Positions 40,825 to 42,301 of a stretch of 64,000 bases of DNA are shown one piece after another. The stretch lies in the NCBI RefSeq assembly GCF_965641715.1, contig NZ_OZ282453.1; one strand, given 5' to 3'. A model generated the notes under the pieces. It had not been told where the DNA came from, did not search any database, and was given only the letters and a program-made list of their open reading frames with translations. Source of the DNA: Escherichia coli (GTDB lineage: Bacteria; Pseudomonadota; Gammaproteobacteria; Enterobacterales; Enterobacteriaceae). The translations under genes and the position numbers were made by a program. The stretch's first letter is position 1. Each line of letters opens with the position of its first letter.

Positions 40825-41841
40825 GGGGAATATCCTTATACGTTCTCAGAACAGGCAGCAAAAAAACAAATGAGATCAAGGTAATATATCTTCACTTGCA
40901 GGCTTGAACAGCAGAAAATTTGCGAGCATGATCGCAATTATTTCACTGCCAGGGATATCAATGGCTTCCAGTAAATCGCTACAGCAGGCAATTGCCAATA
41001 TAAAAATCTGGCACAAGGGTGAACAGCGCACGCCGCATAAGCCATTGTTATTGCTATACGTATTAGCGGGATACCTGAATGGACATCCGCACCTTTTCGA
41101 TTATTGTAGTGGAACAGTCTACGAGGATGCAGTTCGAAGTGAGTAAGTAAAGGTTGCTGGAAACGATCAATGCCGCCATACAATGATATTTGAGGATCAA
41201 CAATGAGTAATAAAAACTACGAAAGTCACCGCAAAGCGATTGTTAGTAAAGGTATACCACCCGCTCTATTAAATAGGCTCACCAATTCGGATGTTCAGGT
41301 GATCAATACCTTCTTAACACGAGTGAGCAAACTGGAACTATCTCAACAAGAGAAAGACTGGATCATAAAAATCATCTCTATGGTTTAGAGAATTTCAGCC
41401 TTGTAGTGGTCAACAAAAACTGGTCACAATTTTAGATTTTTCCAGTATCTATTTTCCGATTCGTTCGGCGGTAATCCACCGATATATTCATGAGGCCGGG
41501 GTACACTACAATATTCAATAGACTGTTATTACATAGGCATCCTCGTTGAGTCTAACGTAACCAGCCACTGATATCCACTCGTACTTCAGGCTTCTGAAAA
41601 AATGTTCCATTGGGCTATTATCCCAGCAGTTTCCCCGGCGACTCATACTCTACTTGATCCGATAACACCACAGCACCTACCTGAACTGTCCGCTTGTGTA
41701 ATGGCTCCCCTGGTCGCCCTTTTAAGAGTCAAGACGTTATCGGGATGCTGTTGATTTCGTTGTAATGTATAAACTTCACGTCGCCACACCACACTTGATT
41801 TGGCTCTGTCACGGCGAACTGCCGTTCAGGGAGTCCTGACA

Positions 41842-42027
41842 TCAAGAGCGCGGTAGCTTTTTTCCTTTAGCCTCACGTATTTCGATTTGTTCCGGAATTA
41901 TCAGGGAGGTTTTTGGTGTTTTGCCCTTACGCTCATCACGCTGTTGTTTGCCCCATCTTGTTATCGAGGAAAAGCCGACATCCATAGCTTTGGCGGCATC
42001 TGCCACAGTATTGTTCGGGGTGAACAT
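41842..42027 (-). mobile_element. IS3-family (IS911-like) transposase OrfA remnant
   Basis: 61-aa fragment [33 protein letters not shown]...PEQIEIRE resembles the IS911/IS3 OrfA HTH region; no intact transposase or terminal repeats seen. Confidence 0.7.
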
Positions 42028-42301
42028 ATCCTCTGTTCAGGTGGACAAATTCAGTAAACCATTACATATGAGGCAGTGGCGGTAACACGGTCTCAACGAT
42101 ATGACGCTGCACACTACGATAAAAAAGAGGAGTTTAAAGATAAGATAAAGGGCGGCTTCAGGGGGATAAAATAGAATGTAATGCGCAGAAAACACGTATA
42201 AATTTCAAACAACGATGGTTAAAAAGTTAGCTGGGTCAACTCCCCCACACTGAGTCGGTGGAGGAGTATTCGTGATTAAGGGACGAAGGTTATAGACCGT
42301 G

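Follow-up and report, generated by a model that had tools for sequence, protein, structure and literature searches.

Relics of an IS911-like element and a P4-type integrase around the apsAB operon in the leuX island region of Escherichia coli

Introduction

How did an intact helicase operon of Escherichia coli come to stand between two pieces of broken mobile DNA? The question is raised by a stretch of 64,000 nucleotides of an E. coli chromosome (hereafter, the window), which runs from mdtM to the fim and nan genes and then into part of the leuX genomic-island region. The operon is apsAB, a DdmDE-like antiplasmid system that has already been described (PMC11096173); the remnant of an insertion sequence (IS) lies downstream of it and a fragment of a tyrosine integrase gene upstream. 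An earlier note on this DNA, made from its letters alone, had proposed that the operon arrived by, or was trapped between, mobile-element events. We consider it probable that both scars are non-functional relics bounding the surviving core of an old tRNA-Leu (leuX) genomic island, and that many E. coli have deleted this core as one block. The pattern is that of ordinary island decay.

The integrase fragment and the degenerate leuX end

The P4-type tyrosine integrase gene at 50380-50635 (minus strand) is gutted, with about 95 of 420 codons left. A tblastn search with the intact 420-amino-acid (aa) protein that adjoins tRNA-Leu in strain JX21CE35 recovered residues 1-18 (17/18 identical), 293-311 (with two stops), approximately 338-367 (CGHGFR...AVERQ) and 393-417 (E=2e-20). 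The deletion of residues 19-292 has removed all of the arm-binding and core-binding part together with the Arg box I region. Also deleted are the 25 residues 368-392 (...SSVRAAY...), to which we assign the catalytic Tyr from what is generally known of such integrases. The HGFR motif (HxxR box) is kept, and so is an N-terminal stub at 50582-50635. Pfam gave no match on the fragment; its intact relatives carry Arm-DNA-bind_3 (DUF4102), Phage_int_M and Phage_integrase and lie beside tRNA-Leu. Because the stretch taken to hold the catalytic Tyr is deleted, the fragment is homologous to the P4-type tyrosine integrases without being a functional member, and can no longer act. RefSeq labels it as a pseudogene, “tyrosine-type recombinase/integrase, incomplete”.

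The earlier note had described a C-terminal integrase fragment with an internal deletion about 1.1 kb upstream of the operon. This description holds for residues ~338-367 and 393-417 with the gap between them, to which the N-terminal stub is to be added, and the open reading frame (ORF) 50365-50553 sits 1.09-1.13 kb upstream of the apsA start. The same deletions are present in A-type and ST131-type genomes (e.g. SA186); the pattern being common to the window and the ST131-type genomes, the decay of the integrase is therefore old.

What precedes the fragment tells more about its origin. On the minus strand, positions 50818-50579 align with JX21CE35 over 264 bp at 79% identity, and the alignment extends from the CCA end of leuX through its terminator and the intergenic region into the integrase gene, of which the first 57 nt are covered. 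A copy of the leuX transcription terminator, consisting of a hairpin and a T-run, is located at 50785-50802 (minus strand). It is directly preceded by a degenerate leuX 3' end at 50808-50839 (minus strand), GAGTC[TGGAATCGCGGTG]CGGCCTTCG-CACCA, which was found with a shorter pattern and by alignment; the canonical 23-mer of the leuX 3' end gave no match in a search allowing up to 3 mismatches. At the same position, strain UK_Dog_Liverpool has an almost canonical leuX 3' end, GAGTCCGGCCTTCG-CACCA, and its divergence from the window falls exactly at this repeat. Strain A30 agrees with the window at 99.6-99.9% identity over the stretches compared (41400-49400 and 50560-52450). Its real leuX, with an intact integrase, follows after another ~21.8 kb, and this pair is oriented like the fossil pair of leuX end and integrase.

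We therefore read 50808-50839 as a displaced tRNA end, which would serve both as the attR of the present-day leuX island and as the tRNA-proximal end of a fossil island. The integrase then marks a junction between tandem islands rather than a simple flank. Since it is preceded by the terminator copy and the degenerate leuX 3' end, the operon most probably resides in the fossil of an older leuX island that was displaced from the tRNA by a newer one.

The internal integrase and att remnant might instead have come from homologous recombination between variants of the leuX island, which would produce a mosaic in place of sequential tandem integration. The fim-leuX region is indeed a known recombination hotspot (PMC4850260), and the two flanks diverge unequally from strain AHM9C68I (97.4% identity on the left vs 90.6% on the right). 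However, recombination alone does not create second copies of a tRNA 3' end, a terminator and an integrase start that are directly oriented and 22 kb away from the genuine elements, and divergence of genomes exactly at the repeat is the expected behaviour of an attR. We regard a mosaic origin as unlikely.

Several variants of these elements were seen. The terminator copy differs from the real terminator of A30 (locus L019, just 3' of tRNA-Leu 17154-17238) by paired changes that preserve the stem (AGACGTCAACAGACGTCT vs AGACCTCAACTGAGGTCT). The displaced leuX 3' end contains three tandem GCGAAGGT octamers in AHM9C68I (L014, 9188-9222) and UK_Dog_Liverpool (L017, 7438-7470), and one in the window. 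A 13-nt insertion (CACCGCGATTCCA / CACCGCTATTCTC) is found in this end in the window and AHM9C68I, and not in UK_Dog_Liverpool.

Breakpoints and the present/absent block

Both scars coincide with real breakpoints, as the earlier note had supposed in calling them likely sites of recombination. Homology to K-12 runs up to the nanS stop, skips a gene for an HNH endonuclease, resumes at 40796-41104 and then ends to the left of the IS remnant. Comparison with genomes lacking the operon, which the same note had advised, gives a sharper picture: AHM9C68I has both flanks and nothing between them. Window positions 36000-41406 and 50642-56135 are contiguous in this strain, and exactly 41407-50644 (9,238 bp) is missing; the same unit is absent from UK_Dog_Liverpool.

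The empty junction of the two strains reads ...CAGCCTTGTAG|CCTTTCAAGG..., and CAGCCTTGTAGCCTTTCAAGG marks this allele. In AHM9C68I (...TTTCAGCCT TGTAG|CCTTTCAAGGG...), the first 5 nt of the IS inverted repeat are joined to the site 10 nt ahead of the integrase ATG, so that the junction keeps ~190 bp of the sequence upstream of the integrase and no integrase itself. In intact islands, these ~190 bp are part of the interval from leuX to the integrase ATG. A probe of 501 bp spanning the junction was covered over at least 80% of its length in 776 of 5426 complete E. coli genomes, mostly in one piece and at about 98% identity. Since AHM9C68I lacks exactly 41407-50644 and the probe is covered in these 776 genomes, the scars mark real breakpoints, and the segment between them behaves as one present/absent block.

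We read the empty junction as a deletion from a window-like ancestor because it retains the integrase-upstream sequence without the integrase, together with the IS terminus. Two enzymatic routes to this deletion were rejected: catalysis by the transposase, as the junction lies 5 nt inside the inverted repeat and not at the IS terminus, and excision by the integrase, as the junction is not at the att repeat.

The opposite polarity, under which the empty junction would be ancestral and the 9.2-kb block (IS remnant, apsAB and integrase remnant) would have been inserted later, has the numbers in its favour, as the empty sequence is far commoner (776 vs 51 genomes). Against it, the leuX-to-integrase sequence of ~190 bp, ending 10 nt before the ATG, is present without an integrase, and the first 5 nt of the IS inverted repeat are kept; moreover, an integrase, whether excising or integrating, would cut at the att repeat and not there. 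Insertion into an empty ancestor thus appears quite improbable, and deletion from a window-like ancestor remains our preferred reading.

The IS911-like remnant and the contexts of apsAB

At the other border stands a dead IS911-like element of the IS3 family (41402-42066, minus strand), of which 665 bp are left from an original ~1251 bp. In blastn, five of its pieces match, in colinear order, the intact IS911 isoform of locus L002 (1251 bp; E 5e-103 to 3e-10, 85-97% identity), and it matches IS911B of K-12 at 74.5-87.5% nucleotide identity. Positions 15-65, 135-298, 334-366, 704-759 and 931-1251 of the IS survive, and four internal colinear deletions of about 69, 35, 337 and 171 bp have removed ~590 of 1251 bp. 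For about 58 bp inside the remnant (41718-41775), no IS911-type counterpart was found at the nucleotide level. The element still has its two terminal inverted repeats, the right one (IRR) at 41402-41436, beginning TGTAGTGGTCAAC... from 41402, and the left one (IRL) at 42032-42066, TGTAATGGTTTACTGAATTTG... up to 42066. Read from the outer ends (IRR TGTAGTGGTCAACAAAAACTGGTCAC from 41402 onward, IRL TGTAATGGTTTACTGAATTTGTCCACCTGAACAGAGG from 42066 downward), they agree with the ends of IS911B and show the IS911-type 5'-TG. There is no target-site duplication, the flanks being CCT (41399-41401) vs TAT (42067-42069).

The coding parts are reduced to fragments. An ORF of 61 aa at 41842-42027 (minus strand) is a truncated OrfA, in which the N-terminal part of the HTH is missing owing to the 69-bp deletion; its match to HTH_Tnp_1 (Pfam E=0.0096) is below the family cutoff, and its translation agrees, when compared by eye, with the OrfA frame of the L002 element. 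OrfB, the DDE transposase, is represented by a C-terminal fragment at 41515-41646 (minus strand) and a second piece at 41729-41845, seen in Pfam as rve_3 and rve fragments (E=0.003 and 0.062, both below the cutoffs; the rve_3 match belongs to 41515-41646). Intact orfA and orfB with a programmed -1 frameshift are absent from the remnant. The element is thus a relic, not an active member of the IS3 family or its IS911-like group, and without a transposase it can no longer act. Where this sequence occurs in near-identical genomes, RefSeq records IS3-family or integrase-core pseudogenes.

Hence the OrfA fragment that the earlier note had placed just downstream of the operon is genuine and belongs to an IS911-like element with both inverted repeats, while the surrounding sequence, which it had called scrambled, consists of retained IS pieces in colinear order. 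Homology searches of the kind which that note had proposed as a check found both the IS and the integrase.

The IS end at 42066 is 235 bp from the apsB stop codon. The first 133 bp of this interval (42067-42199), up to the conserved 3' flank of apsB, are a filler found only in 6 window-like genomes; the IS remnant with its flanks is likewise restricted to 6 complete E. coli genomes. A hairpin 3' of apsB (42239-42267, minus strand; minimum free energy -23.1 kcal/mol, z=-2.55) is terminator-like, but its T-tract is weak.

The restricted occurrence of the IS is best seen against the distribution of the operon. The operon query matched 148 of the 5426 genomes, and the IS remnant lies beside it in 6 of them. 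At least four contexts of apsAB were distinguished, no two of them sharing a downstream neighbour, and homology between contexts stops at different points (42200, 42244 and 42303). The ST131-type genomes lack the segment from HNH to IS (40222-42243) and have in its place a 35-bp stub, which matches the left end (IRL) of ISKpn1 at 34/35 positions and joins inside the loop of the hairpin described above. In EC1515, an intact IS3-family element lies 128 bp downstream of apsB. In distant relatives from other Gammaproteobacteria, the pair stands alone, with integrases, Tn7-like genes, AbiE or Fic next to it.

Delivery or mobilisation of the operon by IS3-family transposition, as a composite or one-ended transposon, is very improbable and largely refuted: in three contexts, an IS3-family scar does follow apsB closely on its 3' side (the IS911-like remnant, the ISKpn1 stub of ST131-type genomes and the intact element of EC1515), but the three ISs are unrelated, with no similarity of the remnant to the ISs of EC1515 or A29, only one IS copy is present here and the upstream scar is a tyrosine integrase and not the second copy that a composite transposon needs, a target-site duplication is lacking, the context homology stops at the three different points given above, and distant relatives of the pair have no IS nearby. 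Consequently, the part of the earlier proposal that stands is that the operon lies between genuine mobile-element relics in horizontally acquired DNA; the IS did not bring it.

Other mobile elements have also reached the operon, as fresh insertions in other strains. IS21 was found in or beside apsAB in ZH063 and SK1402, IS1 in Nord58 and PEC41, and an ISEcp1-blaCTX-M-14-IS903B array in MSB1_6C. In A29 and 1218KP, an IS3 sits at the position equivalent to 49403-49408 of the window, and apsA of A29 is frameshifted too.

The apsAB operon and its lost neighbours

The operon consists of apsB (42302-44533, minus strand), encoding an Argonaute-like partner of 743 aa, and apsA (44530-49239, minus strand), encoding a superfamily 2 (SF2) helicase of 1569 aa with a C-terminal PD-(D/E)xK nuclease. 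Both genes are intact; apsA is counted from the ATG at 49239, and the program-made ORF reaches a GTG at 49275. Sequence libraries were silent on both large proteins: Pfam, NCBIfam and PADLOC gave no match, nor did searches of PDB sequences with single sequences or a profile, PADLOC gave no useful match on distant ApsA relatives, and a literature search by RefSeq protein accession gave no match. The identity of the operon was therefore obtained from fold searches and then from the literature.

For a model of ApsA residues 370-1569 (pLDDT 85.7), the top 20 Foldseek matches were DdmD structures (E 9e-18 to 1.6e-11), followed by XPD/DinG at about 2e-5. ApsAB has been described as an E. coli antiplasmid system by Zongo et al. 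(2024, Nat Commun 15:4093; PMC11096173), and the window proteins carry its residues at the published positions: GFGKS 218-222, DELH 532-535, SAT 823-825, QAVGRVER 1140-1147, D1420 and D1433-V-K1435 in ApsA, and the MID-like motif Y409, K413, Q431-G and K489 with the C-terminal N743 in ApsB. The catalytic set of ApsA (K221, E533, D1420, D1433 and K1435) is present and invariant across a 53-sequence alignment (A3). According to the same publication, at least three families of E. coli genomic islands carry apsAB, some of them also having Shango and AbiE, and in ST38 the operon lies at tRNA-Leu; its inactivation by IS is frequent, and plasmid destabilisation was shown in vivo for the ST38 allele and a 92/92% variant.

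Between apsA and the integrase fragment lies a non-coding stretch of 1.1 kb, which proves to contain the remains of further defence genes. Positions 49254-49694 (minus strand) hold a decayed 3' remnant of the Shango helicase gene sngC (residues ~545-732 of SngC) with frameshifts, stops and an internal deletion, 49835-49922 resemble the region upstream of sngA in EC1515 (88 bp, 75.6%, E=6e-10), and 49979-50131 (minus strand) hold a C-terminal remnant of the AbiEii toxin gene (residues 298-348, with stops; tblastn E=9e-11). Intact sngABC is not present in the window, where only the sngC remnant and the sngA-upstream-like piece were found. In EC1515, apsAB lies 11 bp downstream of a complete Shango system (PADLOC: SngA 4.6e-97, SngB 4.6e-187, SngC 1.2e-273), which is preceded by AbiEi/AbiEii. 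The three remnants are colinear with this AbiE-Shango-apsAB island, and the spacing of the sngC remnant to apsA is 11 bp, equal to that in strains with intact sngABC. From these colinear relics it is probable that AbiE, Shango and apsAB once stood side by side at leuX as one defence cluster.

As sngC of EC1515 is 11 bp from the pair, the idea that apsAB supplies extra components of Shango was also considered; it was rejected, as distant relatives have the pair alone with its own HTH or BrxR-like regulator. Such distant pairs (L010 from Oceanisphaera; L011/L012 from metagenome) are preceded by a small HTH_3 or BrxR-like WYL regulator, and one adjoins Tn7-like TniQ/TnsD genes. A dedicated regulator of the HTH_3/WYL type appears to have been lost from the E. 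coli copies of apsAB. A promoter scan revealed no sigma-70-like site on the minus strand upstream of apsA, a result that says nothing on expression.

Proposed history of the locus

We suppose the following succession of events. An island with its own P4-type integrase would have stood directly beside leuX, carrying AbiE, Shango (sngABC) and apsAB, and an IS911-like element would then have inserted downstream of apsB. A newer island, equipped with an intact integrase, a type I restriction-modification system, TIR/WYL genes, CP4-like toxin-antitoxin modules and an HTH regulator, may next have integrated into leuX, moving the old tRNA 3' end, the leuX terminator and the old integrase ~22 kb inward. 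In the absence of selection, the old integrase, AbiE, Shango and the IS would have decayed by multiple deletions, and apsAB stayed intact. Other lineages would have lost the block from the IS end to the integrase start in one illegitimate deletion, giving an allele that is now common, and in ST131-type genomes a separate, ISKpn1-associated deletion would have removed the HNH-to-IS segment. We infer this order and the mechanism of tandem accretion from the homologies, coordinates, junction sequences and allele counts, which were read directly.

Several points weigh against this history. Compared with leuX, the att remnant at 50808-50839 is altered by an insertion of 13 nt and a deletion of 1 nt. 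The attR of the fossil island, which would mark its distal end, was not found near nanS with the leuX 23-mer (up to 3 mismatches). The figure of 776 genomes refers to coverage of the probe, the junction having been read base by base in two genomes, AHM9C68I and UK_Dog_Liverpool. The 5-nt TGTAG match to the inverted repeat could be a coincidence, with odds of about 1 in 1000. Few genomes have the occupied allele (6 + 45), compared with the 776 that have the empty-junction sequence, and naive parsimony would favour insertion. The order of events, finally, rests on a handful of inspected genomes and not on a phylogeny.

Gene order in the window

No tRNA gene is present in the 64-kb stretch scanned. 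The nan genes end with nanM and nanS (nanS end at 40166), and an HNH endonuclease gene (40174-40824, minus strand), which is lacking in K-12, starts 7 bp past the nanS stop. It is followed by the N-terminal fragment of a phosphorothioate-DNA restriction endonuclease (40904-41146, plus strand; NCBIfam NF045808, E=3.9e-15), which is common to K-12 at 85-88% identity; in AHM9C68I, an intact gene of this phosphorothioate-DNA-binding type adjoins the leuX integrase. An ORF of 61 aa (41203-41388) lies between this fragment and the IS remnant.

Beyond the integrase fragment are an HTH regulator, RelE/ParE-CopG, DUF4942, CbtA/YeeU, RadC and DUF932. Further on, the present-day leuX island contains three adjacent genes on the minus strand, for a GTPase (59165-60178), a WYL/HTH protein (60218-60988) and a TIR-domain protein (61217-62194; TIR_2 E=2.4e-13), which may form another defence module. 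In this region (59165-62194), the window is closer in content to SA186 than to A30. Far from the island, a gene for a 750-aa pentapeptide-repeat protein (5154-7406, plus strand; GC content about 32-37%) lies between yjiL and yjiJ, beside a gene with an SdiA-regulated domain, and looks like an older horizontally acquired insert in a core region.

Significance

The finding is in essence already known: broken ISs and integrase pseudogenes are routine in tRNA-linked islands, RefSeq flags the pseudogenes, and the operon has been published as ApsAB. The account given by the earlier note is right as to mobile-element scars at the breakpoints and lacked the identity of apsAB, the AbiEii and Shango remains and the tandem-island junction. 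The present analysis adds a base-pair map of one island fossil, evidence for a former contiguous AbiE-Shango-apsAB defence cluster at leuX, and a 9.2-kb presence/absence allele with precise borders, affecting an antiplasmid system that has been validated by experiment; the common deletion form of this allele is the only mildly novel angle. This allele may be used as a marker for relating the loss of apsAB to the carriage of plasmids and resistance genes across E. coli lineages.

One can speculate, with considerable doubt, that the block between the scars represents a plasmid-permissiveness polymorphism, in which one illegitimate deletion (41407-50644) was spread by recombination to roughly one-seventh of the sequenced E. 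coli. If so, the deletion would have been favoured since the loss of the antiplasmid system lets useful plasmids persist, and the rare occupied alleles, such as that of the window, would represent an ancestral plasmid-restrictive state.

Comparison with known systems

The IS remnant resembles IS911 (e.g. the IS911B/insO fragments of K-12 KpLE2 at leuX) in the type of its inverted repeats and in the order of OrfA (HTH) and OrfB (DDE, rve), and, like IS911B of K-12, it is a broken copy within the leuX island region. It differs from IS911 in a divergence too great for the same IS species, in having no intact ORF and in the lack of a target-site duplication.

The integrase fragment is similar to the P4-type (IntB-like) leuX integrases. 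It is headed by a tRNA 3'-end repeat and a leuX terminator, and the whole is oriented like the genuine leuX-integrase pair. Unlike them, it keeps only ~95 of 420 codons, the Tyr stretch and the Arg box I region are gone, and its att repeat is degenerate. The system with which the fossil integrase may be compared is the tandem accretion of islands at tRNA genes, as in KpLE2 of K-12 and GI-leuX of ExPEC (extraintestinal pathogenic E. coli).

The operon has the two genes of the published ApsAB in the same order, and its allele is ~92.4-92.5% identical to the U1-type copy; it departs from the published system in that its Shango and AbiE neighbours are only fragments. With DdmDE of Vibrio cholerae it has no detectable sequence similarity and no PADLOC match, and ApsA is ~380 aa longer. 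The models of ApsB and DdmE are strongly different, and DdmE is devoid of the MID-like motif (PMC11096173).

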